Source: Escherichia phage cardinal
Direction: 5' to 3' (one strand)
Length of the DNA stretch: 64,000 nt
Sequence record: PQ567651.1
Numbering within the stretch: the first letter of the stretch is position 1; every line of letters begins with the position of its first letter. Positions 30,604 through 63,296 of this stretch are shown piece by piece. Position numbers and translations under genes: made by a program. The notes under the pieces were generated by a model, which was not told the DNA's origin, did not search any database, and saw only the letters and a list, made by a program, of their open reading frames with translations.

Positions 30604-30777
30604 TTACCTTTTAAGGAAACCAATCATAATGAAGAACCACATCCAGGCAGGAGAGATAATAAAGCCAAAGAAACCGCAAATAACCGCTTTCTTAATCTCT
30701 TCCAGACAACCCACCAGGAAAAGACCGAGTGAGACTACAATCCAGATAGCCATAAATACTGTAACAAAGAAACTCAT
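30604..30777 (-). CDS. small membrane protein, 57 aa
   Basis: hydrophobic; GGGAGAAAGG RBS; not in track. Confidence 0.45.
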   Translation of the reverse strand: MSFFVTVFMAIWIVVSLGLFLVGCLEEIKKAVICGFFGFIISPAWMWFFIMIGFLKR

Positions 30778-33752: not shown

Positions 33753-33959
33753 ATGGATATTACTACACTAAAGTTTATACTTCTCTTCTTACTTATAGTT
33801 ATAGGCTTAATTGTTATACCCTATCTATATGTCTACATGTTATCTCGTAAGTATGGTTATGAGCGTATACCATTTTACTATTTAATACCTGTCTTAGTTA
33901 TCTATCTATTTCTCTTTTGTAGATATTGTCCTGAACTAGTCCTGAACATTGGAAGTTAG
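33753..33959 (+). CDS. small membrane protein
   Basis: 68 aa, two hydrophobic helices. Confidence 0.5.
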   Translation: MDITTLKFILLFLLIVIGLIVIPYLYVYMLSRKYGYERIPFYYLIPVLVIYLFLFCRYCPELVLNIGS

Positions 33960-48943: not shown

Positions 48944-49150
48944 ATGGCAGGTGTTTTAGCAGTATTAGGTTGTTTTATTGTTGTGTTTTTGATTGTGTTA
49001 ATCCCTAGTTGGCTGCTGCTTTTAGCATACAACTATATGATTGACATTATCGGTTTAGACTGGCATCATGTTCCTGTAACGTTTTGGAGTGTAGTCTGTG
49101 TGACGTTCATTCTTGCGGTACTTCGTGGTATCTTTCAATCTAACAAATAA
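48944..49150 (+). CDS. small membrane protein
   Basis: 68 aa hydrophobic; AAGGAGA RBS. Confidence 0.5.
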   Translation: MAGVLAVLGCFIVVFLIVLIPSWLLLLAYNYMIDIIGLDWHHVPVTFWSVVCVTFILAVLRGIFQSNK

Positions 49151-49491: not shown

Positions 49492-50469
49492 ATGCAACTG
49501 GGTTTCCCAATTATTGATGTGGTTGTTTTAGTGGGTATTTTAGTCTTGTCGATTTGTATTGACTTCTTTGGACACAGAGAAAACAAAGAAATTTCATTTA
49601 AATCGGCAGTTGGTTGGTCAATTTTCTGGATTGGAGTATCATTAGCCTACTATGGTTTTGTATACTTCCAACACGGTGCTGATTTTGCGAGCTTGTTCTT
49701 GAGTGGGTATGTGTTGGAGAAATCTCTTTCTGTAGATAACTTAGTAGTATTTGTGGCAGTATTCGCAAGTTTTGGTATTAAAAGCACACACTTGCAACAC
49801 AAGATTCTACTTTGGGGTATTGCAGGTGCGATTGTCTTCCGAGGTGTGTTTGTAGCAGTAGGCACTTACTTGTTGAGTTTGGGCTGGTATGTTAATATCT
49901 TCTTCGGTGCTGTCATCCTTTTCTGTGCGGCTAAAATGGTATTCGCTGGAGATAATGATGCAGAAGTTGATTACTCTAAACACTGGGCTACTCGCATTGT
50001 TCGTAAGCTGTTCCCTGTATCTGATCAGATGGATGGTGAGAAGTTCTTCACAATCAAAAATGGTGTTCGTGTAGCAACTCCGGCTCTGGTTTGTGTGTTT
50101 GTAATGGAAATGGTTGACGTAATCTTTGCAGTAGACTCTGTTCCAGCAGTAATTGCAGTGACACAAGAACCTCTGCTTGTATTTTCTTCGATGCTCTGTG
50201 CAATCTTAGGTTTACGTGCTCTGTTCTTTGTTCTTAGTGTTGCACTGAAGTATTTGGTTCATCTGGAGAAAGCAGTTATCGTAGTCCTGGTATTTGTGGG
50301 TGCAAAACTGATGTATCATCCGTTTGCAGAAACTCTGCACGCAAAAATGAGTTTCCTGCCAGCACACATTGATCCGACGATCAGTATGTATATTGTGTTA
50401 GGTACTCTTGGGTTGGGTGTTGTTGCAAGTTTAATCTTCCCTGAAAAAGAAGATCAGACTGTTGCTTAA
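49492..50469 (+). CDS. terC: TerC-family integral membrane protein
   Basis: multiple TM helices and TerC signature LEKSLSVDNLVVF. Confidence 0.8.
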   Translation: MQLGFPIIDVVVLVGILVLSICIDFFGHRENKEISFKSAVGWSIFWIGVSLAYYGFVYFQHGADFASLFLSGYVLEKSLSVDNLVVFVAVFASFGIKSTHLQHKILLWGIAGAIVFRGVFVAVGTYLLSLGWYVNIFFGAVILFCAAKMVFAGDNDAEVDYSKHWATRIVRKLFPVSDQMDGEKFFTIKNGVRVATPALVCVFVMEMVDVIFAVDSVPAVIAVTQEPLLVFSSMLCAILGLRALFFVLSVALKYLVHLEKAVIVVLVFVGAKLMYHPFAETLHAKMSFLPAHIDPTISMYIVLGTLGLGVVASLIFPEKEDQTVA

Positions 50470-50475
50470 TTCATT

Positions 50476-50498
50476 AAGCCCCTTCGGGGGCTTTGTTG
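50476..50498 (+). terminator. rho-independent terminator
   Basis: aagcccc-ttcg-ggggctt then tgttg. Confidence 0.55.
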
Positions 50499-50508
50499 AG
50501 GTGATCTG

Positions 50509-50715
50509 ATGGTGGTTTTACGTGTTCTTTGGATTCTGTTTGAAAATATTTGTTTTGCTCTAGGGTTGTTTTGTTTGATTTTTATCTTGACAACATATAT
50601 TGATAACCATACAATTACTATCAACAGGAACGGAGAACAGATGTATTGTTTCTCTAGGGATTTTAAAAATTGTGTTGAGACTTTAAATGAGAGGGTTACA
50701 AATGAAAAACATTAA
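50509..50715 (+). CDS. small membrane protein
   Basis: 68 aa with hydrophobic N-terminus. Confidence 0.45.
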   Translation: MVVLRVLWILFENICFALGLFCLIFILTTYIDNHTITINRNGEQMYCFSRDFKNCVETLNERVTNEKH

Positions 50716-51292
50716 ATCTTTTATTGTTGCAGTTGTTTTAGGTAGTGCATTGCTGGTAGGTTGTGATGATTCTGAAAATGTACAAAATCAACGTTACCAA
50801 CAAACACCAAATCAGATGGTAGATGAACAATATGTAAATCAGCCTGCACCTCAAGTTGTTCAAGCAGCACCTGCACAACCTTCAACAGTTGTTGTGCAAG
50901 GAGGCGGCAGTGGTTCTTCTGGCGTAGGTGAGTTTGCTACAGGTATGCTTCTTGGTCATATGTTGAGTGGTAATAGTGGCGGTGGTGGTTATAGAGATGG
51001 CGGTAGCAATACAACAATTATTAATAACAACGCTGCTCCTACAACTAACAGTAAAGCATATACAACACAAAAACATAGTTTTTATGATAAACAAGGGAAT
51101 ACATATACAACAACTAAACAAAACACAATTAAGCAGCAAAGTGTACAAACGTATTCACGCCCATCAACAACAAAAGTGAATAGTGATTACTCTGCTCGTA
51201 AGTCTTACTCAAGCCCTATTAGCTCTTATAGTAAGTCTTCGAAAAGTTATTCTTCGTCGAAACGTAGTTTTAGTAGCTCACGTCGTCGTTAA
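50702..51292 (+). CDS. putative lipoprotein with Gly- and Ser/Thr/Tyr-rich low-complexity regions
   Basis: signal peptide with lipobox MKNIKSFIVAVVLGSALLVGC; C-terminal SYSSPISSYSKSSKSYSSSKRSFSSSRRR. Confidence 0.6.
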   Translation: MKNIKSFIVAVVLGSALLVGCDDSENVQNQRYQQTPNQMVDEQYVNQPAPQVVQAAPAQPSTVVVQGGGSGSSGVGEFATGMLLGHMLSGNSGGGGYRDGGSNTTIINNNAAPTTNSKAYTTQKHSFYDKQGNTYTTTKQNTIKQQSVQTYSRPSTTKVNSDYSARKSYSSPISSYSKSSKSYSSSKRSFSSSRRR

Positions 51293-51327
51293 TAATTTAA
51301 TACAGATTAAATAAGAAGGAGAAACAG

Positions 51328-52179
51328 ATGAAACTAGAAGTTGGTAAAGTGTATCGCCTGGAAGGTTGGATCTTTAATCAAGAAATTCTTGAGAAGAATA
51401 AAGATGGTTTTGAGTTTGTTGGTACTACCAAAGAAAGTATGCACGATGACGAATACTGTAAATTCGTTGGTAAAAATACAGGTCAAGAACAATTTTGCTT
51501 TAAAAGCGCAATCGGTGATTATGCTTCTGTAATGCCAACACCAGAAAAGACTTCGAAGCAATATACTGTCTTTGGTGTAAAACTTGAAGAACTTGTAGAA
51601 CACCCACGTTTTGAAGAGTTCAAGGTTGCTGCAATGCGCAAGCATTCTGAAATTAAAATACATAATTTGTTTGATTTAGAAGATCGGTTTGATATCTTTA
51701 TGTATGATCGCAGGGAAAAGCATTTTGATGCAACGACTTCAAAATTTGCTGCAACAGAGGATATTAAAATCCTTGATGTTGATACCTTTCTTGAGAGTGT
51801 ATCGTTTGTATTCATCCATAAATACAAGAAACGTAGTGATCATAAACGTGTGAAAGGAACTCCTCGTAAGAAACGTACTGTAAACAAAGCAACTTTGCAC
51901 TTCACTTCTGGTGATAAATATACTCTCAAAGGGTTTGAAAGTGTTTTGTATGATGCTGGAACGGGTAATATCAAGTTTATTATTAAGGCAACCTACAAAG
52001 GTACGGTATTGCACGAAGAGGCTGTTACACTACCTGTATTCGATATCTCTCGTGTTGAGGTACGGGGTGTTAAAGAGTCCTTCGATCTGGATTTCTTAAC
52101 TGCTAATACCACGGGTTATGTTAATCTGGAAGCAGATGGAGCATTTATTACTACAAATTATTTAGATATGTTTGTTTAA
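51328..52179 (+). CDS. hypothetical protein
   Basis: 283-aa ORF, AAGAAGGAGA RBS. Confidence 0.5.
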   Translation: MKLEVGKVYRLEGWIFNQEILEKNKDGFEFVGTTKESMHDDEYCKFVGKNTGQEQFCFKSAIGDYASVMPTPEKTSKQYTVFGVKLEELVEHPRFEEFKVAAMRKHSEIKIHNLFDLEDRFDIFMYDRREKHFDATTSKFAATEDIKILDVDTFLESVSFVFIHKYKKRSDHKRVKGTPRKKRTVNKATLHFTSGDKYTLKGFESVLYDAGTGNIKFIIKATYKGTVLHEEAVTLPVFDISRVEVRGVKESFDLDFLTANTTGYVNLEADGAFITTNYLDMFV

Positions 52180-52247
52180 TACTTAACTTGTGTTATGATG
52201 GTGGTACAGAGGTATCACCATTTACTAAAGAATATGGAGGAAATTGA

Positions 52248-53351
52248 ATGTCCAGTCCTTTTATCAGTGCCGTAAAAAGCAAACCGTCTGAAATGAGTGT
52301 ATTCACGGCAACAACAGAAAAAAGTAAGTCTTTGTTTGCTCCAAGTGCTATGGATGCAAGCCCTGTATATGCCCCTGCTGTTGCACGCCCTGTACAAATG
52401 CTGCCTCCAATGTCTCGTGAAGAGATTGAACAGGTTGGTGCTGATGCAGGACTTACTCTTCGTAACCTTAATGCTGAAGTGCTTAAACACCAGCGTTCAT
52501 CTCAGGGAGATGAAATGAGTGAACGTTTAACTGCGCTTATTAAGCAAGCAAAGCAACTTGATCCTAACTCTATTAAACAATCTAAAGGTTTAGGTAAACT
52601 AGTTAAGAAAGTTTTAGGTATGAAAGAAGATTTGTTTGGAGAATTTGACACCATCAATAACCGTATTGAAGGTTTGGTAAAGACACTCCAAACAGACTTG
52701 AAAAAAGAAGAAGATTCTTTACGATATCTGCAACGTTTAGAGGAAGCTATTGCAAAATATGCTCTTAGCTTAAACAGGGATATAGAGCTTCTAACAGCTA
52801 CTTATGAAAAAGAAGAAGTTCGCCTTAATACACTACCTGAAAATGAGGTAGAAGAGCGTCAACGTACTCGTGATACTATGGATCTGCTTGAAATTCGTAT
52901 TGCAGACCTGAAAGCCTTACGCTTACTATGTGTTCAGATGGGGCCACGTGTACAAAGTATGCAGAAAGTATCTGCAAGTTTGATGCGATCAGCCCGTAAT
53001 ATTGTGAATAATGTTATTCCTGCTTACTCTGCAAACTTTTCTATGTATATTGAAAGTCTACGCCAGAAGAAAGCAGCCGATACACAGAACAATGTACTGA
53101 ATGAATTTAATGCTGCTATTGCAATGGGTAGTGATCTGGCTGCACAAAACCAGATTGAAGCTACACAACTTGCTAATCGTCAAGTATTGGATATTGAAAC
53201 ATTGCGTCGTGATCAAGAAAACTTAGTTAAAATGTTGGAAGAAACTAACCGAATCAACACTGAAGCCCGTGCTGCTCGTATTGATTACATTCAAGAAGTG
53301 CAGTCTCTTGAAGATGGTATGATTCAAACTGTTAAACGTGGTCTACTTTAA
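52248..53351 (+). CDS. TelA-like (toxic anion resistance family) protein, tentative
   Basis: 367-aa mostly helical/coiled-coil protein; call rests mainly on size, composition and Ter-gene context. Confidence 0.4.
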   Translation: MSSPFISAVKSKPSEMSVFTATTEKSKSLFAPSAMDASPVYAPAVARPVQMLPPMSREEIEQVGADAGLTLRNLNAEVLKHQRSSQGDEMSERLTALIKQAKQLDPNSIKQSKGLGKLVKKVLGMKEDLFGEFDTINNRIEGLVKTLQTDLKKEEDSLRYLQRLEEAIAKYALSLNRDIELLTATYEKEEVRLNTLPENEVEERQRTRDTMDLLEIRIADLKALRLLCVQMGPRVQSMQKVSASLMRSARNIVNNVIPAYSANFSMYIESLRQKKAADTQNNVLNEFNAAIAMGSDLAAQNQIEATQLANRQVLDIETLRRDQENLVKMLEETNRINTEARAARIDYIQEVQSLEDGMIQTVKRGLL

Positions 53352-53364
53352 GGAGAAATATATT

Positions 53365-53571
53365 ATGAATATTAAAATTTACAAACTGTCTGGTTCTATG
53401 ATTGCTGTTCAGTATGACAATGAAGATCGTTATGTTCTCCTCCAGGATGCTTGGTTAGATGATCCTAATGTATTCACTGTCCTGCGAGAACTACGTGCTG
53501 TCTATACCTATTCTTCTAAAGATGGTTTTGACAATTCAACAATGGAATTGGTAAAAGAGGAGAATGTGTAA
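53365..53571 (+). CDS. hypothetical protein
   Basis: ORF with AAGGAGA RBS. Confidence 0.45.
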   Translation: MNIKIYKLSGSMIAVQYDNEDRYVLLQDAWLDDPNVFTVLRELRAVYTYSSKDGFDNSTMELVKEENV

Positions 53572-53771
53572 TGAGTAAAGATATTCACTTAACTCGTGAA
53601 GAATTGCAAACCATTATGGAAGATGCTTTCATTGATGGTTGGAAACAAGGTCAAGAATCAGATTGGTATGATGCCGAAGATTTTTTGTATTATCATATGA
53701 CTGCACCTGTAGACGAGCAAACACACTCTGAAACAACTTTGGCTTTAATTGATCTTAAGGCTGGTGTATAA
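53571..53771 (+). CDS. hypothetical protein
   Basis: 66-aa ORF, overlapping start/stop. Confidence 0.45.
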   Translation: MSKDIHLTREELQTIMEDAFIDGWKQGQESDWYDAEDFLYYHMTAPVDEQTHSETTLALIDLKAGV

Positions 53772-54334
53772 TGGGGTGTTTTAGTTTCTTGTGCAAAGAG
53801 TCTGGTAATGCTGCTCTTTCTACCTCTTTCGATGGCTCTCCTTGCTACCTATTTCTTTTGAAAGGTGGTAAGGTTGTCGAAGAGATGTATGGGAATTATG
53901 ATAGCTATGGTAGTGTTTTCTCTAACGAAGAAGATAAACATGGCAATCGTAAAAGATTCAAGTGGTCTATGCCTTGGGAAGAAGTTTGTAATTTGATGTT
54001 CTCTTCCGATCTTGGAGATGGGATTGCTCTGGTATTAGAAGAGCACTTTACAGGCGAGATCCCAACAGAAAGATCTGAAGAAGATCCTAACCAGGGTTGG
54101 GGTGATGGGGAAGAAGATCCAGATTGCTTCTTCAGCACTGAAAATAATAAATTTAAACGTGTTGACAATCCTTACCACAAAGTGCATAATACTTGCATTG
54201 AGACAGAAGAAGACTCAAAGCTAGAAATTGAAGATGATTTAGTTGTAACTATCTCTTTAAACGAGTTGCAAAAGATCACCAGAGAGGCTTTCTATTTAGG
54301 CTTGAGAGCAGGTAAAGGAGAAGACAGTGCTTAA
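53771..54334 (+). CDS. hypothetical acidic protein
   Basis: 187-aa ORF. Confidence 0.5.
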   Translation: MGCFSFLCKESGNAALSTSFDGSPCYLFLLKGGKVVEEMYGNYDSYGSVFSNEEDKHGNRKRFKWSMPWEEVCNLMFSSDLGDGIALVLEEHFTGEIPTERSEEDPNQGWGDGEEDPDCFFSTENNKFKRVDNPYHKVHNTCIETEEDSKLEIEDDLVVTISLNELQKITREAFYLGLRAGKGEDSA

Positions 54335-54596
54335 ATTTAATATCAAAGACGACAAATCAGATGAACCTAAATGTTTTGGAGAACTTGACGTAGGTGATAC
54401 ATTTGTATATTATGTTGCCTATCAAGATTCTGGTTTAGATACGTTCAGAAACTTAGTGTTTATTAAAGTTAATACAAACCAAGCAATGTGTCTGAACGGT
54501 TCGCAAAGAGGTCAAATTAGCTGTATTTCGTATGATACAGAAATGGTAGAAGTGGATTTAGAAGTTACTAACATTACACTCAGAAAGGAGAAATAA
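54327..54596 (+). CDS. hypothetical protein
   Basis: 89-aa ORF, GTG start with AAAGGAGA RBS. Confidence 0.4.
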   Translation: MLKFNIKDDKSDEPKCFGELDVGDTFVYYVAYQDSGLDTFRNLVFIKVNTNQAMCLNGSQRGQISCISYDTEMVEVDLEVTNITLRKEK

Positions 54597-54597
54597 T

Positions 54598-55391
54598 ATG
54601 TCCAATAAAATCAGTCTTAAAAAACGTCAAGAAACTCTTACCGTATCTCTGCGTAAGAAAAAGATTAACGATGTTGTTCTTCGTGTCGGTAGCGCCTTAG
54701 ATATTTCGGGTAGTATGTGTGAGCTGTATCGTGATGGCACTGTTAGTGATTTTGTAGGTAAGCTGCTGCCGTTTGGTATGAAGTTTGATGATAATGCACA
54801 GATTGACATGTGGGCTTTCAATAGTTCTTCTTTTGAACTGCCTCCTGCAACGGCTGATGTATATGATGATTATGTCGGCTCTTGTATGTCTAACGTTTGC
54901 ATCAATGGTGGTACAGCTTATGCTCCAGTAATGCAAGAGATCTATGATACATACTTCGGTAGTGTACCTATGAAAAATATTACACGCGAAGTCGTTGAGT
55001 ATGAAGAAGTTCCGGCTAAGGGTTTCCTTGCTAAACTAACTGGTAAAAAGAACTTGTAGAAGTAACACGTACTGTTGTAGAACAGGTTGTAGATACTGAT
55101 GCACAAGTTGATCGTACTCCTGCAATGATTTTCTTCCAAACTGACGGGGAGAACATGGATACTTCAGCAGTACGTAGCTTACTGAACAAACACCGCAATA
55201 CGCCTGTTTACTGGTTTATGGTTGGTGTAGGTAATGCAAACTTTAAATTCCTGAAAGACTTGGCAAAGGAATACGATAATGTTGACTTTATCGGTATTGC
55301 AGATTTGTCCTTGTCTGATGAAGAACTTTACGATAAACTGTTATCCGAAGAGTTTGGTGAGTGGGTTAAAAAATTTGGAGCAAAAGCGTAA
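54598..55391 (+). CDS. von Willebrand factor A (vWA) domain protein (TerY-like), interrupted by a frameshift at an A5 run (~55045-55049)
   Basis: MIDAS motif ALDISGSM, NGGTAYAP; after TAG at 55057-55059 the domain continues in another frame (...MIFFQTDGENMD...). Confidence 0.6.
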
Positions 55392-55463
55392 AAAACGCTT
55401 GACTTTGTAGAAAAGATTAGTAAAATAGACAACGTAAATTAACAACAAAGGAGATAATAAATT

Positions 55464-56060
55464 ATGACTCAGAAAATTTCCCTGAAAAAAGGTTCTAGCG
55501 AAAAAGTTTCTCTGAAAAAGATCGCACCAGCACTGAAACGCATTCGTCTGGAATTCTCTTGGAAATCTAACGAAAAACTGGATCTGGATGTTAGTGCTCT
55601 GATTTGCCGACACAATGCATCTGGTCTGCCGGAACTGTTGTCTCCTCGTCACCTGGTGTGCTACGCGCAGAAATTTGATCCTGAACGTTCTACTTTTGCA
55701 GGTGAAGATGTTCGTGATGGTGTAGGACAGATGGAGCAGATCGATGTTACTCTGGATAATATCTCTGCTGAAGCACAGGAAATTGCATTCGTAATTACTA
55801 TTGATGACGAAACGGGTAAGAAACGCCTTGGTCACGCTACCGAAGGTTTCCTTAAAATCTTCGATGATGAACGTAACGTTGAACTGCTGGATTTTGACTT
55901 CTTGGCTCCAGAACTTGCAGGTAATACCATTTGCCACGTTGCCTCCCTGGTGCGGGAAGATAATGAATGGAAACTGAAAGCATATGGTGTAGGTAAAGCT
56001 GGACTTGACATTTATGATGTAGTTAAAGCGTTTGGCGCTGGTGACGATTGGTTCGAGTAA
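55464..56060 (+). CDS. terD: TerD-family protein
   Basis: collinear with E. coli TerD: SLKKGSSEKVSLKK, DLDVSALIC, IAFVITIDDE, NEWKLKAYGVGKAG. Confidence 0.8.
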   Translation: MTQKISLKKGSSEKVSLKKIAPALKRIRLEFSWKSNEKLDLDVSALICRHNASGLPELLSPRHLVCYAQKFDPERSTFAGEDVRDGVGQMEQIDVTLDNISAEAQEIAFVITIDDETGKKRLGHATEGFLKIFDDERNVELLDFDFLAPELAGNTICHVASLVREDNEWKLKAYGVGKAGLDIYDVVKAFGAGDDWFE

Positions 56061-56112: not shown

Positions 56113-56715
56113 ATGGGTATTACTTTAGAAGGTCAAAAACTTATTCGTAGCGGTAATTTTCTTGTAGATATTGACAACAATGAAGATTATGCTTTAGAAG
56201 TTAGTGATGTACTGTTTGATGCTTTGCAGTCTGGTTTCAATTTTGAAGTTTATGAAGTAATCCGTGGAACTAAACTCAGAGAAACCCTTGGATCAACTAG
56301 TGATGTTTATTCTGCGATCTGGCAATATTTCGGGTTAATGGATGGTAAGACATACCTTACTGATAGTTATTCTGAAGATGTTGTTTATCTTGATATGGAA
56401 GAGTTTCGTCGTCTGTTCAAGAATGAAGAAAATGAAGAAGAGGGCGAACTTTTTGAAGGAATTACTCTCGAAGGTAATGTTGAAATTGTGTATAAAGCAG
56501 GAAAAACATTCCACTTGCGCGAAAACGGTAAAGCAAAAGTTGATTTTGTAAACAAGACAGTGACAACCGAACATAATTATCTTAAAGATGGTCAACCAGC
56601 TTTTGAACGTGTAAAAATTAAATTTAAAGTGTTGTCTGCACTAGTTACGGATCAAGAACGTATTGATTTTGTAGAAGATGGTGTAGTAACTCATACAAAG
56701 GTTTACAATATCTAA
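56113..56715 (+). CDS. hypothetical protein
   Basis: 200-aa ORF, AGAGGAGAAAA RBS. Confidence 0.5.
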   Translation: MGITLEGQKLIRSGNFLVDIDNNEDYALEVSDVLFDALQSGFNFEVYEVIRGTKLRETLGSTSDVYSAIWQYFGLMDGKTYLTDSYSEDVVYLDMEEFRRLFKNEENEEEGELFEGITLEGNVEIVYKAGKTFHLRENGKAKVDFVNKTVTTEHNYLKDGQPAFERVKIKFKVLSALVTDQERIDFVEDGVVTHTKVYNI

Positions 56716-56807
56716 CAGAGTGTAAGAGGGGGATAGTCCCCCTCCACTTGCAAAATAGCCTCTTCTGTGTTACAATAAAAGTTCGTTTAACAAAATAGGA
56801 GGCAAGT

Positions 56808-57317
56808 TTGTCAATAAAAACCTTTGTCGCAATTGCGTTACTATCCTTAACTGCTTTTACATTTACACCTGTTGTGGCGCAAGCCGAAGCTGCAAACGTA
56901 AAAACTGCTAAAGTAGTTCACAAGTGTACAAAGCGTGATAGTAAAGAAAATCTATTAGCTTGTGCAATCTATGCAGAAAGTCGTAATCAAGGAAAGCGCG
57001 GTATGTCTGCTGTTGGTAATGTAGTATTGAATAGGGCTAGAGATTCATATTTCCCTGATACTATAAAAGAAGTTTTGTTTCAAAAAGGACAATTCTCTTA
57101 CACAAAGACATTCAACGTTATGGAACGTGATAAGTGGAAAGACGCTAAAGCTATAGCAGAACGTCTACTTTATCTCGATAACCATTTTCCAGAATTACGA
57201 ATTGCATTAGATATTACAAAAGGAGCATTATACTTTAAAAAATCTACAATAAGAGCACACTGGGAAAAAGATATGGTTCTAGTGTACCGCTACAAAGAAC
57301 ATCAATTCTATCGCTAA
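56808..57317 (+). CDS. secreted SleB/CwlJ-family cell-wall hydrolase
   Basis: signal peptide then LLACAIYAESRNQGKRGMSAVGNVVLNRARDSYFPDTIKEVLFQKGQFS; TTG start with AGGAGG RBS. Confidence 0.7.
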   Translation: MSIKTFVAIALLSLTAFTFTPVVAQAEAANVKTAKVVHKCTKRDSKENLLACAIYAESRNQGKRGMSAVGNVVLNRARDSYFPDTIKEVLFQKGQFSYTKTFNVMERDKWKDAKAIAERLLYLDNHFPELRIALDITKGALYFKKSTIRAHWEKDMVLVYRYKEHQFYR

Positions 57318-57327
57318 GGAGATATAG

Positions 57328-57606
57328 ATGAAAGATGGCGTTATCGTTGCAAGTTATCTTGTTATTGGTCTTACAGAAGAGGATGTACATTACATTAGGA
57401 AACATTTAGAACAGTTTGCAATGATGTTCATCGAAGACGAAGACAATGTGGATGTTTATTCAATTGAAATGATCAATGATAACGTCTATCCTTGTGTAGC
57501 TTTACGAGTCGATGAAGATGTTTGGGAACGTTTTTCACGTAGTCACGATAATGTTGAATGTTCTATGGTTATGTCACAAAGCAACATACTGGGAGTGTTA
57601 CACTGA
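57328..57606 (+). CDS. hypothetical protein
   Basis: 92-aa ORF, TAAGGAGA RBS. Confidence 0.5.
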   Translation: MKDGVIVASYLVIGLTEEDVHYIRKHLEQFAMMFIEDEDNVDVYSIEMINDNVYPCVALRVDEDVWERFSRSHDNVECSMVMSQSNILGVLH

Positions 57607-57836
57607 TGGCTGATGTTATTGAAGTTAACTTTAAAACAAAAAAGAAAGTTGATAAGTATACAATCTTAAAAAATATTTGCGTTGTGTGCTTCAATTCTGT
57701 AATATATGACTCACGTAAGGGCGAAAATGAAAATGAACCTTACATCCAGATTTCTAAAGGTAAAGGGCAGTGTATCTGCAAAAACTGTGCTGTAGCAATT
57801 AAGGAGGTTGTAGATGAAAACCATTGGGATCAATGA
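57606..57836 (+). CDS. small zinc-ribbon-like protein
   Basis: CVVCF...CICKNC; ATG overlaps upstream stop. Confidence 0.45.
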   Translation: MADVIEVNFKTKKKVDKYTILKNICVVCFNSVIYDSRKGENENEPYIQISKGKGQCICKNCAVAIKEVVDENHWDQ

Positions 57837-58008
57837 TACTGGTGAAGTTGTAAAGTCTTGGGATGATCTTAGTGGTATCCCTACAGATAAACTGATTAAA
57901 CTGCGTGATGTTTGTCGTGATCATCTTAATGAAACATATAAAGAGTATATGGAAGCACGAGATCACAGTTTAGCTATCCAGATGGAACTCGCAAAACGTA
58001 ATCAATAG
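57814..58008 (+). CDS. hypothetical protein
   Basis: 64-aa ORF. Confidence 0.45.
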   Translation: MKTIGINDTGEVVKSWDDLSGIPTDKLIKLRDVCRDHLNETYKEYMEARDHSLAIQMELAKRNQ

Positions 58009-58065: not shown

Positions 58066-58629
58066 ATGATATTTCACATAACTCCCTATCTTTCTGGAGA
58101 TATTGGAAAAGGTATCAATGACACAATAAGTGTCTTACCAGAAGATAGTTGGATTTGCCTAAGAGACATTGATACAATGTTTCTTCTTCCAGAACAACCT
58201 GCTTGGTTGGAATCAATAGTCCGTTCAAATCCTGATTTTGATGTTCTTGGTGCATCTTGTAATAGATTGGGATCAACATATCAATTATTTAATAATGAAA
58301 GAAGTGAAGATCCAAATATATTACACCACATTGAGATTGCAAAAAGAGCACATCTAGAATGGGGAAACTCAATAGAGGAAGTACCTACAGATGCTATCTT
58401 AGCAGGATTCTTTCTTCTCTTTCGTAAGAGTCTGTGGAATGAAATCCCTTTTGAGGAAAGATCAATACAGTTTGATATAATTTTCTCTAAAGCATTACAC
58501 GCTAACAATAAAAGGCTAGGTTTATTACGTGGGCTATATTTATTTCACACATACCGTTTAGGTAGTGATGATCCTAGGAAAGCTGTTTCACACCTTTTAC
58601 ATTGTCAAGACATGAATAAAATTATTTAA
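58066..58629 (+). CDS. hypothetical protein (possible glycosyltransferase-like)
   Basis: 187-aa ORF with DID motif (CLRDIDTMFL); assignment weak. Confidence 0.35.
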   Translation: MIFHITPYLSGDIGKGINDTISVLPEDSWICLRDIDTMFLLPEQPAWLESIVRSNPDFDVLGASCNRLGSTYQLFNNERSEDPNILHHIEIAKRAHLEWGNSIEEVPTDAILAGFFLLFRKSLWNEIPFEERSIQFDIIFSKALHANNKRLGLLRGLYLFHTYRLGSDDPRKAVSHLLHCQDMNKII

Positions 58630-58638
58630 GGAGTTATT

Positions 58639-59325
58639 TTGGAAAATACAAAAATTGGTGTTGGTGTTATTACTGTAGGTAAGCGTCCTCTTAAAGATTA
58701 TCTTGTGACTGATCCTAATGCTACTTTTGTTGTACAGTATGATCGGGAACGAAAAGGTGTTGCATATGCCCGTAATGAACTGATGAAAAAGTTTTATGAT
58801 GAAGGGTATGATTACTGGTTTATTTTTGATGATGATTGTTATCCGGTTGTGCCAGGTTGGGAAACATATTTTGTAAAACAGGCTAAGGAAAATGGTTGGG
58901 ATTTCTTTGGTATGCCTGAATACTTTAAAGATAAAGTAAAAGGTATTGAAGGTGAAGTGGTTATTTGGGAACTAGGTATGTGCCAGTTTGGTATGTATTC
59001 CCGTGCAGTTATTGAGAAAGCTGGCTATTTCCGTTCATACACCCACGGTTATGGATATGAAGATGCAGAGTGGATTCAGCGCGTTCCACTGGCAGGTTTG
59101 AACCGAGGTATTCTCGGCGTACCATGTCCTATTCGAATTATGGCGTTTATCCATCCTGACGATGTGTTTGGAGATAATCCTTTACCTTTTGCGAATCTGT
59201 CAAAAGAAGAGAAAGAACAGGGGATTGGTGTAAACTGGGAACAATATAAACAATCACTGGAGGATCTTCGCAATGGTAAAACTTTTATCTCTTATGAGGA
59301 GGCTCAAAAATATGGTAAGTCCTAA
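58639..59325 (+). CDS. putative GT-A-type glycosyltransferase
   Basis: DYWFIFDDDCYP (DxD-like) after N-terminal nucleotide-binding-like segment. Confidence 0.4.
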   Translation: MENTKIGVGVITVGKRPLKDYLVTDPNATFVVQYDRERKGVAYARNELMKKFYDEGYDYWFIFDDDCYPVVPGWETYFVKQAKENGWDFFGMPEYFKDKVKGIEGEVVIWELGMCQFGMYSRAVIEKAGYFRSYTHGYGYEDAEWIQRVPLAGLNRGILGVPCPIRIMAFIHPDDVFGDNPLPFANLSKEEKEQGIGVNWEQYKQSLEDLRNGKTFISYEEAQKYGKS

Positions 59326-60286
59326 TACTCCTGTACTTAAGTGTGATAATAAGTTAGGCAGTGGTTGTGATTACCATCGTATTGTAATGCCGTTTGCGGG
59401 AAATACATTTAAACCTAAGAAAGACGTTTTGGTTTTTAATAGAGTGTATTCTCGTGGATCAGACGAGGTTAAACGCCTGAAGGCACAAGGTGTTAAGATT
59501 ATTGTTGACTTAGATGACTTTTATTCACTTAACCCTGAACATTATATGGCTGGCGTATTTACTAATCACTCAAAGACTATTGTAGAGATGATTAAGTTAG
59601 CAGATGTTGTTACTGTAACAACAGAATATCTAGCTTACAAAATTCGTCATTTAAACCGTAATGTTGTCGTTATTAGAAACGCACTGCCTTACGACGAAGG
59701 TCAATTTACTTTGACAAAAGACCGTTATTCTGACACGCCTATTATTTGGGCTGGAGGAGCAAGCCATGAGCCTGACTTATCTCTTGTAGCTAATACATTT
59801 GATGATACACTATTGACAATTGCAGGGTATGAAGTGTATCCTTCTGCACCTGTTGGAAATAATAGTCAGTATCTAACTACTGCGGAGTGGGTTAAAGTAA
59901 AACGTAAAATTCCAAATGCACAGTATAAACCAGCTATTAAAAATTTAGGTGAGTATATGTCTGTGTATGACGGTCACAGTATTGCAATTGCTCCTCTGGT
60001 AGATAACGACTTCAACAACTGTAAAAGTAATTTGAAGATTTTGGAAGCAGGTGCAAAGGGTCTTCCTATTATCTGTTCTCCTGTGCTGCCGTACTTCAAT
60101 CCGGTAGATGCAAAGGCTGTTATCTATGCAGACTCTAAAGCATCTTGGCATTATGAAGTTGTCAAGCTAATGAGAAACCCTAGATACACAGAAGATCGTG
60201 GTATGATGCTTGCAGAACACGTTCGTCTTAATTATAATCTTGCAGATGCCAATGAACTGCGTCGTCAAGTTATTGAAAGTCTTTAA
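59312..60286 (+). CDS. putative GT-B glycosyltransferase (paralog A)
   Basis: C-terminal KSNLKILEAGAKGLPIICSP (GT1/GT4-like E..G.P motif); GAGGAGG RBS. Confidence 0.5.
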   Translation: MVSPNTPVLKCDNKLGSGCDYHRIVMPFAGNTFKPKKDVLVFNRVYSRGSDEVKRLKAQGVKIIVDLDDFYSLNPEHYMAGVFTNHSKTIVEMIKLADVVTVTTEYLAYKIRHLNRNVVVIRNALPYDEGQFTLTKDRYSDTPIIWAGGASHEPDLSLVANTFDDTLLTIAGYEVYPSAPVGNNSQYLTTAEWVKVKRKIPNAQYKPAIKNLGEYMSVYDGHSIAIAPLVDNDFNNCKSNLKILEAGAKGLPIICSPVLPYFNPVDAKAVIYADSKASWHYEVVKLMRNPRYTEDRGMMLAEHVRLNYNLADANELRRQVIESL

Positions 60287-60297
60287 TAAGGAGCGAT

Positions 60298-61242
60298 ATG
60301 CCTAATATTATTCTTGACACACGTGGGCATGAGAGGTATAGTGTATGTGATTTTCATAGAATCATTTTGCCATATAAACGCAAACTGACCATTAATCCTA
60401 AGCATAATATTTTTGTGTTTAATGGAGTACCAACCCGTGGAAAGCCAGGTTTCCTGGCTCTTAAACAACTTGGGTTTAAATTGGTAATGGATCTGGATGA
60501 TTCTTTAATTATTCCTGAAGGGCATATGCTGGAAGGATTATTTGAAAATCAAATCCGAGATGACCTAAAATGGTTCCTTGAAAGAAGCGATCTTGTAACT
60601 ACAACAACTCCGGCATTAAAGGTTGAACTAAGCCAATACAATGATAATGTACATATTGTGCCTAACGGACTACCTTTTGATGAAGGACAGTTTGTTCTTA
60701 CTAAAGATCGTTATTCTAAAAGTCCACTGGTTTGGGCGGGAAGTGAAACACATAAACATGATTTAGCAATTCTTCCTGATTTTGGTAAAGATTTAACTTT
60801 ATGTGGATTTCGTAGAGATCACGAAGAGTTAAGTAGTGCTCAATGGTTGCAAATTAAAGAAAATATTCAACCAGATTGTGTTTATGAAGGTATTCGTCCT
60901 TATGAGTGTTATATGGAAGCATACGATGGTCATCAAATCTCCATAGCTCCATTAGTAAATAATCATTTTAATAATGCCAAAAGTAATTTAAAAATTCTTG
61001 AAGCTGGTGCTAAAGGTTTGCCACTCGTTTGTTCGCCACGAGAGAACTATTATACTGAAGAATTTAAAGATCTAATCTTCTTTGCTGATTCAGTTAAAGA
61101 GTGGAAAGATATTGTAGAATACTTAATCGAATCCCCTGATGTTTGTATTGAGAAAGGATTGGCTCTTGCTAAGTATGTAAGAGATAACTACAATATTGAT
61201 GATTTAAATGAAACCCGCAGACTGCTTATCGAGGATTTATAA
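60298..61242 (+). CDS. putative GT-B glycosyltransferase (paralog B)
   Basis: shares FVLTKDRYS..P..WAG and KSNLKILEAGAKGLP with paralog A. Confidence 0.5.
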   Translation: MPNIILDTRGHERYSVCDFHRIILPYKRKLTINPKHNIFVFNGVPTRGKPGFLALKQLGFKLVMDLDDSLIIPEGHMLEGLFENQIRDDLKWFLERSDLVTTTTPALKVELSQYNDNVHIVPNGLPFDEGQFVLTKDRYSKSPLVWAGSETHKHDLAILPDFGKDLTLCGFRRDHEELSSAQWLQIKENIQPDCVYEGIRPYECYMEAYDGHQISIAPLVNNHFNNAKSNLKILEAGAKGLPLVCSPRENYYTEEFKDLIFFADSVKEWKDIVEYLIESPDVCIEKGLALAKYVRDNYNIDDLNETRRLLIEDL

Positions 61243-61523: not shown

Positions 61524-63296
61524 GTGTCTTATGTTGTAAATAAATATGGGTATAACATTGATCTAAGTCAAGAAGGACATACTGGGTGTCCTCGTTGTAT
61601 GAAAGGAGGGCGTGATCGATCACAAAACAATTTGATGGTATATGGCTTAGATGCCGATGAAGACCATCGAGGCGCACATTGTTTTTCTTGTGGCTTTACT
61701 ATCCCTGATCAAAAATGGTTAAATGCACACGGCGAAGAAATTGAAGAGGAGGATATCTTGGGTAGTGAGTTTAATCCAGAAGTACATGATAAACTAAAAG
61801 CCAGCACTGGAACTAATCCAAAAGGTTATCGCGGTATTCGTGAAGATATCTCTAAGCCTTTCGGTGTACGTTATATGTACGATGAAGCTACTGGCGAAGT
61901 AATTTCAACACTATACCCTACAACTAAAGATTACAATATTGCTGGGTATAAACAACGTATCGATCCAAAAGATTTCTCACATCCTATAGGTGAAACAGGA
62001 AAGGATTGTGATCTTTTTGGGGAGTTTAAATATCGTAACCACAGCGGTACTATTCTAATCGTTGGTGGTGAACACGATATGCTGGCTGCAACACAGATGC
62101 TAAAAGATTATAACAAGGGTGGTAAATATCCTGTTCCTGCTGTAGTATCTGGTACTTGTGGCGAAACATCTCTGCATAAGCAGCTTCAACATCGTTATAA
62201 ATTCTTAGATCAATTTAAAAAGATTGTTCTATGTATGGATAATGATGAAGCTGGACGTGCAGCAGTTGAGAAATGTGTTAAAATCTTACCACGTAATAAA
62301 GTTTACGTGATGGAACTAACGGATGTTAAAGATCCTAACCAGGCACTAGTAGAAGGAAAAATTGATCATTTTATTGATCGCTTTTTCAAAGCTAAACTGT
62401 ACACACCTGCTGGTGTTTACGCTTCTAACGTACTATATGAAGCAGCCTTGGAATGCCTGGAAGCTAAAATGATCACCCTTCCTCCATTCATGCGTGTTGC
62501 TTCTAACATGTTAGGTGGAGGCTTGGTAGAAGAAGAAATTACTGTTATACTTGCAAAAACAAGTATCGGTAAAACACTGTTGGTTAACGAGATTACGAAG
62601 CACATTATTCTTGCACACCCAGAACATACTCTTGGTATTTTATCTTTGGAGGCAACGTATAAGAAGTATTCTCGTAACTTACTGTCTTCATTCTTGCACA
62701 TCCCTCTTCACCGTAAAACAAAAGAAGAGAAGGAAAAGATTTTAAAAGATAATGAAGAAAAGATTCGTGATTTTTACGAACGAGAAGATGGAACACCACG
62801 TTTCTATGTTTGTGATGATCGTGGAGCTAACGTAGATGTGATTAAAGAGAAGGTTCTGGAAATGATTATTTATTTCGGAGTAACCATTCTTGTTATCGAC
62901 CCTTATTCTGACTTGCTTTCTGGTATGGACGTGTCACAACAAGAGGAACTTGCGACGTGGCTCAAACGCATTATGAAAGAGTACGCAATTACCATTGTTG
63001 TAATTTCACACGTTAAAAAGTCTTCTAACAATAGTAATGAACATATTGTAGAAGATGATGCAATGGGTAGTAGCTTCCTTGCTAAAGGTGCTGGTATCAC
63101 AATTGCGCTGGAGCGTGATAAACAAGCTGAAGATCCTATGGAACGTAACCGCACATATTGCTACATTCTAAAGAACCGTGAGTTCTCAGAGACTGGTGCA
63201 GCAGGTAGTTTCTTCTATGAGATTAAAACAGCGACACTTCACGATTACGATCAATACACAAGTAACCCAGAGAATATTCCTGATGGTTCTTATTAA
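61524..63296 (+). CDS. bifunctional DNA primase-helicase (T7 gp4-like)
   Basis: N-terminal zinc ribbon CPRC...CFSCG, TOPRIM-like VGGEHD...CMDNDEAG, DnaB-type Walker A AKTSIGKT; GTG start with AGGAGA RBS. Confidence 0.8.
   Translation: MSYVVNKYGYNIDLSQEGHTGCPRCMKGGRDRSQNNLMVYGLDADEDHRGAHCFSCGFTIPDQKWLNAHGEEIEEEDILGSEFNPEVHDKLKASTGTNPKGYRGIREDISKPFGVRYMYDEATGEVISTLYPTTKDYNIAGYKQRIDPKDFSHPIGETGKDCDLFGEFKYRNHSGTILIVGGEHDMLAATQMLKDYNKGGKYPVPAVVSGTCGETSLHKQLQHRYKFLDQFKKIVLCMDNDEAGRAAVEKCVKILPRNKVYVMELTDVKDPNQALVEGKIDHFIDRFFKAKLYTPAGVYASNVLYEAALECLEAKMITLPPFMRVASNMLGGGLVEEEITVILAKTSIGKTLLVNEITKHIILAHPEHTLGILSLEATYKKYSRNLLSSFLHIPLHRKTKEEKEKILKDNEEKIRDFYEREDGTPRFYVCDDRGANVDVIKEKVLEMIIYFGVTILVIDPYSDLLSGMDVSQQEELATWLKRIMKEYAITIVVISHVKKSSNNSNEHIVEDDAMGSSFLAKGAGITIALERDKQAEDPMERNRTYCYILKNREFSETGAAGSFFYEIKTATLHDYDQYTSNPENIPDGSY

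Follow-up and report, generated by a model that had tools for sequence, protein, structure and literature searches.

In this study, we found that a gene located in a 64-kb window (that is, the whole stretch of phage DNA analyzed here) encodes a cell-wall hydrolase of the SleB/CwlJ type that carries a predicted export signal and is unlikely to be the principal lysis enzyme of the phage. With modest confidence, we favor the view that the protein is an accessory, holin-independent peptidoglycan glycosidase of the periplasm, which assists lysis but is not the principal endolysin. Since another gene, located elsewhere in the genome, codes for the main lysis enzyme (a T4-type lysozyme), the hydrolase is in all likelihood a helper that the phage can do without. 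The enzymatic nature of the protein and its export are well supported, and the proposal that it assists lysis is the weakest step of this explanation.

The window belongs to Justusliebigvirus (phi92 group, phi92-like coliphages; subfamily Stephanstirmvirinae), and comparison with GenBank revealed 98.5% identity of the region to Escherichia phage SD2 and ∼55 other phi92-group genomes. The hydrolase gene is already known, and annotated copies of it have been deposited for more than 130 Stephanstirmvirinae genomes. It was found in 54–55 close phage records and in 77 more distant, Phapecoctavirus-type records, in which the protein identity is 60–80%; word-indexed protein searches for its homologs returned at least 19 and at least 10 close relatives. 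In the ∼98.5%-identical genomes the GenBank names are either 'cell wall hydrolase' or 'endolysin'. We took TTG as the start codon because the next in-frame ATG would cut off the catalytic motif. Sequence comparison showed that this TTG is kept in phages PsgM04F and EF1-1, GTG is the start codon of the rV5-like ortholog, and the open reading frame (ORF) was intact in all 20 subfamily homologs examined (20/20). Features of the gene and its surroundings are shown in Table 1.

Table 1. Coordinates of the hydrolase gene, its predicted elements and the neighboring genes in the 64-kb window
Feature	Position	Strand	Remarks
TerC gene	49492-50469		Upstream of hydrolase gene
TelA gene	52248-53351		Upstream of hydrolase gene
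vWA-TerF-like gene	54598-55391		Upstream of hydrolase gene
TerD-domain gene	55464-56060	+	Pfam TerD, E=4e-28; no transmembrane domain (TMD)
200-aa ORF	56113-56715	+	No Pfam family; no TMD; directly upstream of hydrolase gene
Hairpin	56718-56749	+	Directly after stop codon of upstream gene; GAGGGGGA/UCCCCCUC core, no U-tract
Sigma-70-type promoter-like element	56748-56776	+	TTGCAA, 17 nt spacer, TACAAT, extended -10 TG (consensus scan)
Shine-Dalgarno sequence AGGAGG	56797-56802	+	5 nt before TTG start
SleB/CwlJ-type cell-wall hydrolase, predicted secreted (CDS)	56808-57317	+	169 aa, TTG start, stop codon included
Predicted Sec signal peptide, aa 1-26	56808-56885	+	Cleavage predicted after residue 26, AQA↓EA
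Predicted mature periplasmic enzyme, aa 27-169	56886-57314	+	16.8 kDa, pI 9.7
Cys40-Cys52 codons, possible periplasmic disulfide pair	56925-56963	+	Conservation
Glu57 codon, putative catalytic glutamate	56976-56978	+	Motif AIYAESRNQ; alignment with SleB, invariance
Three small soluble ORFs, 92/76/64 aa	57328-57606, 57606-57836, 57814-58008	+	Downstream
Glycosyltransferase-like genes	58066-61242		Downstream, weak Pfam hits only; then primase/helicase

The original prediction had assigned a strong SleB-family core to the protein, which was borne out by profile and structure searches. Residues 61–168 matched positions 2–100 of the 100 positions of the Pfam Hydrolase_2 profile (PF07486; 71.9 bits against a cut-off of 27, E=7.2e-20), and the protein matched PHROG 938, a family labeled 'endolysin' (E=1e-20). 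When PDB sequences were searched with phmmer, SleB (4F55/4FET) was the sole match. An AlphaFold model, for which 24 homologs were used as input, reached pLDDT values above 90 for residues 36–169, with residues 1–31 unstructured and ∼10 residues between the predicted cleavage site and the folded domain. The only significant matches of this model in a Foldseek search against the PDB were again the SleB catalytic domains 4FET and 4F55 (E of ∼6e-5 to 9e-5; TM score of 0.70–0.76, normalized to the target; rmsd of 2.7–3.2 Å).

Ten columns (C52, Y55, E57, R76, Q95, F96, D135, T137, G139 and W152) were invariant among the 24 homologs, whose identity goes down to 28%. The segment AIYAESRNQ of the hydrolase aligns with AVYGESRGE of SleB 4F55/4FET, which places Glu57 opposite the glutamate of YGESRGE. 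It is therefore probable that Glu57 corresponds to the catalytic glutamate described for SleB, the residue required for SleB lytic transglycosylase activity (PMC12331253). Cys40 is invariant within the subfamily and also kept in the rV5-like ortholog, and it may form a disulfide with Cys52 in the periplasm. Compared with the Bacillus SleB/CwlJ enzymes (4F55, 4FET), the hydrolase has the same catalytic fold and the Y-x-E-[SA]-R motif with its conserved glutamate, but it is 23–25% identical to Bacillus SleB, has no peptidoglycan-binding domain, and contains the invariant Cys52, which is missing in SleB. Its score against the SleB equivalog model (NCBIfam TIGR02869) was 52.1 bits, below the cut-off of 236.5, and the match was confined to positions 81–199 of the 201 profile positions, showing that the N-terminal peptidoglycan-binding domain is absent. 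The protein is not SleB proper; it has a CwlJ-like single-domain architecture plus an export signal. CwlJ is a single-domain protein and SleB has a signal peptide, and the hydrolase resembles each of them in that respect (PMC12331253). As the E. coli host makes no spores, the substrate cannot be the muramic-lactam cortex.

A cleavable signal peptide had also been proposed, and its layout proved canonical: a short basic n-region (MSIK), an h-region of ∼14–19 residues (Kyte-Doolittle maximum of 2.08), a proline at -6 and A-Q-A↓E around the -3/-1 positions. Small residues at -3/-1 were present in most of the 20 homologs compared, the c-region being otherwise variable (46% pairwise identity). The hydrophobic segment covers residues 5–25; it is rich in Leu, Phe, Ile and Val, has Ala, Ser or Thr at 8 of 19 positions (∼42%) and contains no glycine. 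The presequences of the T5-like and rV5-like homologs, MKAALLLVAALTFSFSSQA (cleaved before S) and VKIKIFAIILSALLSLPVVA (cleaved before A), respectively, are both short and classical, the rV5-like one being shorter than that of the hydrolase. Moreover, the h-region of the T5-like homolog has ∼13 residues and is therefore too short for a TMD. Because of the canonical cleavage site with its proline at -6, the absence of glycine and these short classical presequences, a cleaved signal appears to be favored over a SAR membrane anchor, the cleavage itself being predicted. On the other hand, the mean pairwise identity of the n- and h-regions was 80% versus 71% for the mature domain. A segment that serves for export alone is not usually so well conserved, which hints at an additional role, for example, in membrane retention.

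Upstream of the gene, we identified a compact control region. The hairpin that follows the preceding gene has a predicted folding energy of -19 kcal/mol (z=-3.7), a value matched by none of 200 shuffled sequences, and it may be a terminator or a stabilizer of RNA ends. Its GGGGGA...CCCCC stem is kept in PsgM04F and EF1-1 with a different loop. The -35 box, a spacer motif (GCCTCT..TGTGTTA) and the -10 box of the sigma-70-like element are conserved in phages whose hydrolase protein is just 74–77% identical, and the 25-nt promoter motif occurs once in the window, with no occurrence expected by chance. The element probably acts as a promoter. The Shine-Dalgarno sequence is unchanged in three divergent phages. 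In PsgM04F and EF1-1, the hairpin, promoter, Shine-Dalgarno sequence and TTG codon are all kept despite a different upstream gene. We also considered occlusion of the ribosome-binding site as in the early transcripts of T4 e and rejected it, as the 5′ region showed no unusual degree of structure (z=+1.2). Judged from these elements, the gene may well be transcribed independently and its start codon may be deliberately weak; this combination would be appropriate for a toxic enzyme that is exported.

The genomic setting agrees with the earlier description of Ter-like and glycosyltransferase neighbors without a holin or spanin nearby. Four genes (TerC, TelA, vWA-TerF-like and TerD) precede the hydrolase gene, and glycosyltransferase-like genes follow it (Table 1). 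Hydropathy and Pfam analyses of the five flanking ORFs revealed no adjoining holin or spanin, with neither TMD nor lipobox in any of them, and no pinholin or holin was found beside the gene. The three small downstream ORFs, which also follow the hydrolase gene in PsgM04F and EF1-1, likewise had no significant Pfam family. A hydrophobic 69-aa ORF lying out of frame within the 200-aa ORF was considered spurious, and the enclosing gene is missing from Phapecoctavirus relatives. Synteny of a nearby ATPase with the MoxR ATPase of rV5 was also rejected, the two proteins not being homologous.

No second muralytic gene was present in the 64-kb window among the families tested, and therefore we turned to the complete genome of phage VivaForever, which is 98.4–98.5% identical. 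In this genome, a local phmmer search identified CDS0092 (record positions 62012–62512) as a homolog of T4 lysozyme (E=1e-51), located ∼9.5 kb upstream of the counterpart of the first window base. The product has 166 residues, belongs to Pfam Phage_lysozyme (PF00959), shows 49.7% full-length identity to T4 gp e and keeps the Glu/Asp/Thr positions of the catalytic triad. It has no hydrophobic segment or TMD, and without a signal sequence it should depend on a holin. The VivaForever record labels CDS0092 a 'hypothetical protein', and some other records name it lysozyme. Analysis by tblastn detected this lysozyme with at least 95% identity in 55 records and with 60–90% identity in 77 records, counts equal to those of the hydrolase gene, and the matching counts suggest that both genes co-occur in the same records. 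Both enzymes are expected to degrade the glycan strand of peptidoglycan, whereas their folds are unrelated and the counterpart of CDS0092 in phage Bas54 is essential. VivaForever also contains a Rz/Rz1-type pair next to TerL, composed of an i-spanin with one TMD and an o-spanin with the lipobox MMTGC, ∼98 kb from the hydrolase gene. With regard to holins, no homolog of T4 T, RI, spackle or lambda S was detected below E=0.49 when all VivaForever ORFs and the window were searched with phmmer; several small ORFs with two TMDs are holin candidates, none of which could be assigned. A Phapecoctavirus genome announcement lists 'two lytic proteins', one with PF00959 and one with PF07486 (PMC10793346).

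The most informative comparison comes from the rV5-like phages. Their 'cell wall hydrolases' (rV5 SleB, nimi_131, bas54_0065 and CB7_83) share with the protein studied here a signal peptide and a single Hydrolase_2 domain, the catalytic glutamate, both cysteines, a non-ATG start and a position in an early/replication block. As in the phi92 group, a separate Phage_lysozyme endolysin and spanins beside TerL are present; rV5 gp89, a Phage_lysozyme protein, has been called the obvious lysin (PMC3606486), and for Vequintavirinae, the sister subfamily, the literature describes a SleB-like protein that is exported, a lysozyme encoded separately and spanins beside TerL, not arranged in a cassette (PMC7344957, PMC3606486). 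The neighbors differ, being a MoxR ATPase and rIIA/rIIB in rV5-like phages, where the hydrolase gene overlaps the start of rIIA/rIIB, and Ter genes and glycosyltransferases here. The ortholog of phage Bas54, bas54_0065, is 41% identical to the hydrolase over its full length, with the glutamate and both cysteines kept. Bas54 was recognized as phage MaxBurger because the coordinates of bas54_0064/0065 (58428–59358) exactly match the BLAST hit.

A transposon map of Bas54 classified bas54_0065 as 'Non-essential', with 32 of 36 TA sites hit, and the lysozyme gene bas54_0202 as 'Essential', with none of its 24 sites disrupted (bioRxiv 10.1101/2025.11.20.689424). Both spanin genes were also free of insertions, and a comparison of K-12 with the uropathogenic (UPEC) strain CFE311 gave no conditional defect for bas54_0065 (log2FC of -0.88, adjusted p=1) (bioRxiv 10.1101/2025.11.20.689424). 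It should be noted that this dispensability refers to a 41%-identical ortholog, as seen in laboratory experiments and with a single clinical isolate. In Certrevirus CB7, the homolog CB7_83 carries a signal peptide, and its expression in E. coli was toxic, as mentioned by the authors with data not shown; it was not among the 26 proteins found by mass spectrometry of the virion, and in Certrevirus a holin candidate with two TMDs overlaps the hydrolase homolog (PMC7344957). The toxicity fits an active exported muralytic enzyme and would be the only hint of muralytic activity. Taken together, the T4-type lysozyme appears to be a better candidate for the essential endolysin than the hydrolase, and the label 'endolysin' on the hydrolase gene is probably misleading. 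The original prediction had named a canonical lysis cassette elsewhere, combined with dispensability of the gene, as one observation that would speak against it. This is largely what the relatives show: lysozyme and spanin genes are present in 98.5%-identical genomes, and dispensability was observed in the 41%-identical ortholog.

Similar proteins were found in more distant phages. T5-like phages carry a signal-bearing homolog in their early region, apart from the lysis cassette, and possess a holin and lysozyme cassette besides the SleB-type gene (PMC3326045, PMC5519627). These proteins, annotated as 'cell wall hydrolase SleB' (AKFV33 ORF81, VEc33 and phiLLS ORF55), are ∼35% identical to the hydrolase in the catalytic domain and share with it a classical, predicted cleavable signal peptide and a gene located apart from the holin and endolysin cassette, but they are shorter (149 aa), have a different cysteine partner and belong to an unrelated siphovirus genome. 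The homolog of Pseudomonas Pakpunavirus has an N-terminal transmembrane helix, and its gene is flanked by one for DNA ligase and one for a phosphohydrolase; an evolutionary relationship links Pakpunavirus with the rV5-like and phi92-like phages (PMC12846349). Hydrolase_2 is among the dominant catalytic domains of catalogued lysins from Gram-negative phages, and ∼28% of those lysins have predicted signals (PMC8223927). In the open-access literature we found no biochemical assay of a Hydrolase_2 enzyme encoded by a Gram-negative phage.

Enzymes exported through the host Sec system offer another comparison. P1 Lyz, phage 21 R and Oenococcus fOg44 Lys44 are Sec-exported or SAR endolysins, which are the sole and essential endolysins of their phages, are linked to a holin or pinholin and have lysozyme-type folds. 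They share with the hydrolase the holin-independent export of a muralytic enzyme via host Sec, whereas in the present case there is a separate cytoplasmic lysozyme, no holin adjoins the gene and the ortholog is dispensable. Phage N4 gp61 is a further Sec-exported or SAR endolysin (PMC12642591).

On the basis of these comparisons, the accessory enzyme may work in the following manner. Within the Ter/glycosyltransferase/replication block, the conserved sigma-70-like promoter of the gene would drive its transcription, translation from TTG would be weak, and the precursor would be exported by host Sec, with signal peptidase I cleaving it behind Ala26. The basic mature domain of 16.8 kDa would then fold in the periplasm, where the Cys40-Cys52 disulfide could stabilize it. 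By homology, Glu57 would serve as the general acid in cleavage of the MurNAc-GlcNAc bonds of the sacculus, with the enzyme probably acting as a SleB-like lytic transglycosylase. At a low dose, it would nick or thin the wall from outside the membrane, and such nicking would assist the spanins and the T4-e-type lysozyme that is let out when the holin fires. If an enzyme that degrades the wall is active in the periplasm before the cycle ends, premature lysis should be a risk, the weak start codon being the sole visible safeguard.

Several other explanations have to be weighed against an accessory role in lysis. The one we take most seriously, while considering it rather unlikely, is a periplasmic effector that has nothing to do with lysis and remodels or nicks the sacculus to hinder DNA delivery by superinfecting phages, to counter a host defense based on the envelope, or to adjust cell shape and growth. 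In this view, cutting of the wall would serve as a means to another purpose. The location of the gene is in keeping with this idea: in the four lineages examined, it was always placed in early or replication-type regions, with no lysis gene next to it (an exception has been reported in Certrevirus), and in rV5-like phages it overlaps rIIA/rIIB. The dispensability in Bas54 on both K-12 and UPEC CFE311 resembles that of many host-interaction genes, and a promoter of its own, a weak start codon and an unusually conserved signal peptide could be understood in the same way. However, conditional essentiality was not observed in the one clinical isolate (CFE311), and a simple auxiliary role in lysis covers the same facts with fewer assumptions. 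Superinfection exclusion, one of the functions originally suggested, or another periplasmic role is neither supported nor contradicted by our data. It is improbable that the protein is the true endolysin, either Sec-exported or of the SAR type, accumulating in or at the membrane and activated on membrane depolarization, with the T4-type lysozyme as a secondary enzyme. Such a role would agree with the label in PHROG 938 and in many GenBank records, with the frequency of Hydrolase_2 and of predicted signals among lysins of Gram-negative phages (∼28% for the latter; PMC8223927), with the highly conserved hydrophobic segment in which Ala, Ser and Thr make up ∼42%, and with the two-TMD holin candidate that overlaps the Certrevirus homolog (PMC7344957). 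Nevertheless, it is the lysozyme that is essential in Bas54 and the hydrolase ortholog that is not, a 50%-identical homolog of T4 gp e occurs in equal numbers of records, no pinholin or holin adjoins the gene, and the AXA site with proline at -6, together with the short h-region of the T5-like homolog, favors a cleaved signal. The earlier idea of a non-canonical endolysin is therefore unlikely to hold for the principal lysis enzyme.

A decaying or catalytically inert remnant, which the dispensability in Bas54 could suggest, seems very improbable considering that none of the 20 subfamily homologs has a disrupted ORF, the glutamate and nine other columns are invariant in 24 sequences, the promoter, Shine-Dalgarno sequence and start codon are conserved, and the gene equals core genes in its number of records. 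We give still less weight to a virion-associated lysin that opens the wall for the tail tube, although an entry role had been among the first suggestions and no muralytic Pfam domain was detected in 10 tail and baseplate proteins of VivaForever, which leaves no other evident enzyme for entry. A Sec signal is incompatible with virion assembly in the cytoplasm, the gene lies far from the structural module, within the Ter/glycosyltransferase/replication block, and the homolog is missing from the CB7 virion proteome. An accessory enzyme that assists lysis from the periplasm remains the explanation we prefer.

As a sequence feature, the gene is ordinary, and the literature mentions it as a second 'lytic protein'. 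The labeling of the two enzymes nevertheless matters for the mining of enzybiotics and for lysis engineering in phi92-like phages. Our analysis also raises the question of why several unrelated groups of virulent phages keep a dispensable exported wall hydrolase. One tentative answer, to which we assign a rather low probability, is that the Sec-exported SleB-type glycosidases of four virulent lineages (phi92-like, rV5-like, Pakpunavirus and T5-like) have a shared periplasmic function outside lysis, their occurrence alongside a canonical endolysin being documented for the phi92-like, rV5-like and T5-like phages. If this is true, the shared function might be, for example, remodeling of the wall in a way that blocks superinfecting phages or a defense based on the envelope, or that sets the timing of lysis, and the conserved signal segment might take part in its regulation.

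The related phage VivaForever encodes, outside the part corresponding to the window, a T4-e-type lysozyme that matches T4L with E=1e-51 and the Pfam family Phage_lysozyme. In the VivaForever record this lysozyme is labelled only 'hypothetical protein', and the label 'endolysin' has been given to the SleB-like gene. The automatic labels of these two genes have probably been swapped in importance. It was also observed that approximately 20 phage records in the MG065635-MG065690 range are titled 'Campylobacter phage'. Over the compared regions (4.5 kb and 0.9 kb), these records share 98-99% identity with phi92-like as well as rV5-like coliphages, and their host labels look doubtful. With regard to holins, three small ORFs of the window (57-68 aa), each with two predicted transmembrane segments, are possible class II holin candidates in a genome with no assigned holin.

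Features of the window and of related loci
Feature	Position	Strand	Evidence
Small ORF	30604-30777	-	two predicted transmembrane segments
Small ORF	33753-33959	+	two predicted transmembrane segments
Small ORF adjoining TerC	48944-49150	+	two predicted transmembrane segments
TerC	within 49492-56060		E=3e-38
TelA	within 49492-56060		E=5e-34
TerD	within 49492-56060		E=4e-28
Predicted lipoprotein adjoining TerC	50687-51292		lipobox LVGC
vWA-TerF-like gene	54598-55391		two ORFs, 54598-55059 and 55125-55391
200-aa ORF	56113-56715		no Pfam family
Signal peptide n+h region (aa 2-21)	56808-56870
Second glycosyltransferase-like gene	58639-59325		TAGT, 23.3 bits
VivaForever lysozyme	record 62012-62512 (stretch L003, 12012-12512)
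Equivalents of bas54_0063 and bas54_0068 in locus L006	1870-3054 and beyond 7190

The supplement on Bas54 shows strong depletion in the clinical isolate CFE311 for a MoxR ATPase gene (bas54_0063; log2FC -7.2), which lies two genes upstream of the SleB-like orthologue, and for the helicase downstream of rIIB (bas54_0068; log2FC -6.3); no such strong depletion in CFE311 was seen in these transposon data for the hydrolase, rIIA or rIIB.

The window carries a set of phage-borne Ter-type stress-response genes comprising TerC, TelA, a vWA-TerF-like gene and TerD. The vWA-TerF-like gene is divided into two ORFs because the A-run at 55045-55049 is A5 in the window versus A6 in VivaForever (98% identical), which has a single 264-aa ORF. 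The shorter run may reflect a homopolymer sequencing error or a true frameshift mutation, or it may mark slippage-prone expression. As for the second glycosyltransferase-like gene, its match to the TET-associated glycosyltransferase family (TAGT) fell below the cut-off of 27.5 bits, and from this sub-threshold similarity the gene might serve DNA base glycosylation instead of a surface-sugar function.

Only in the window's genus does a 200-aa ORF lie between TerD and the hydrolase gene. In PsgM04F and EF1-1, which are Phapecoctavirus-type relatives, the conserved hairpin/promoter comes immediately after TerD and leads into the hydrolase gene. Across the hydrolase subfamily, mean pairwise identity was 80% in the n+h region of the signal peptide, with L12, L14, T15, T18, F19 and P21 invariant, compared with 71% in the mature enzyme. 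The signal n+h region is therefore more conserved than the protein that it precedes, which is the reverse of the usual signal-peptide pattern.
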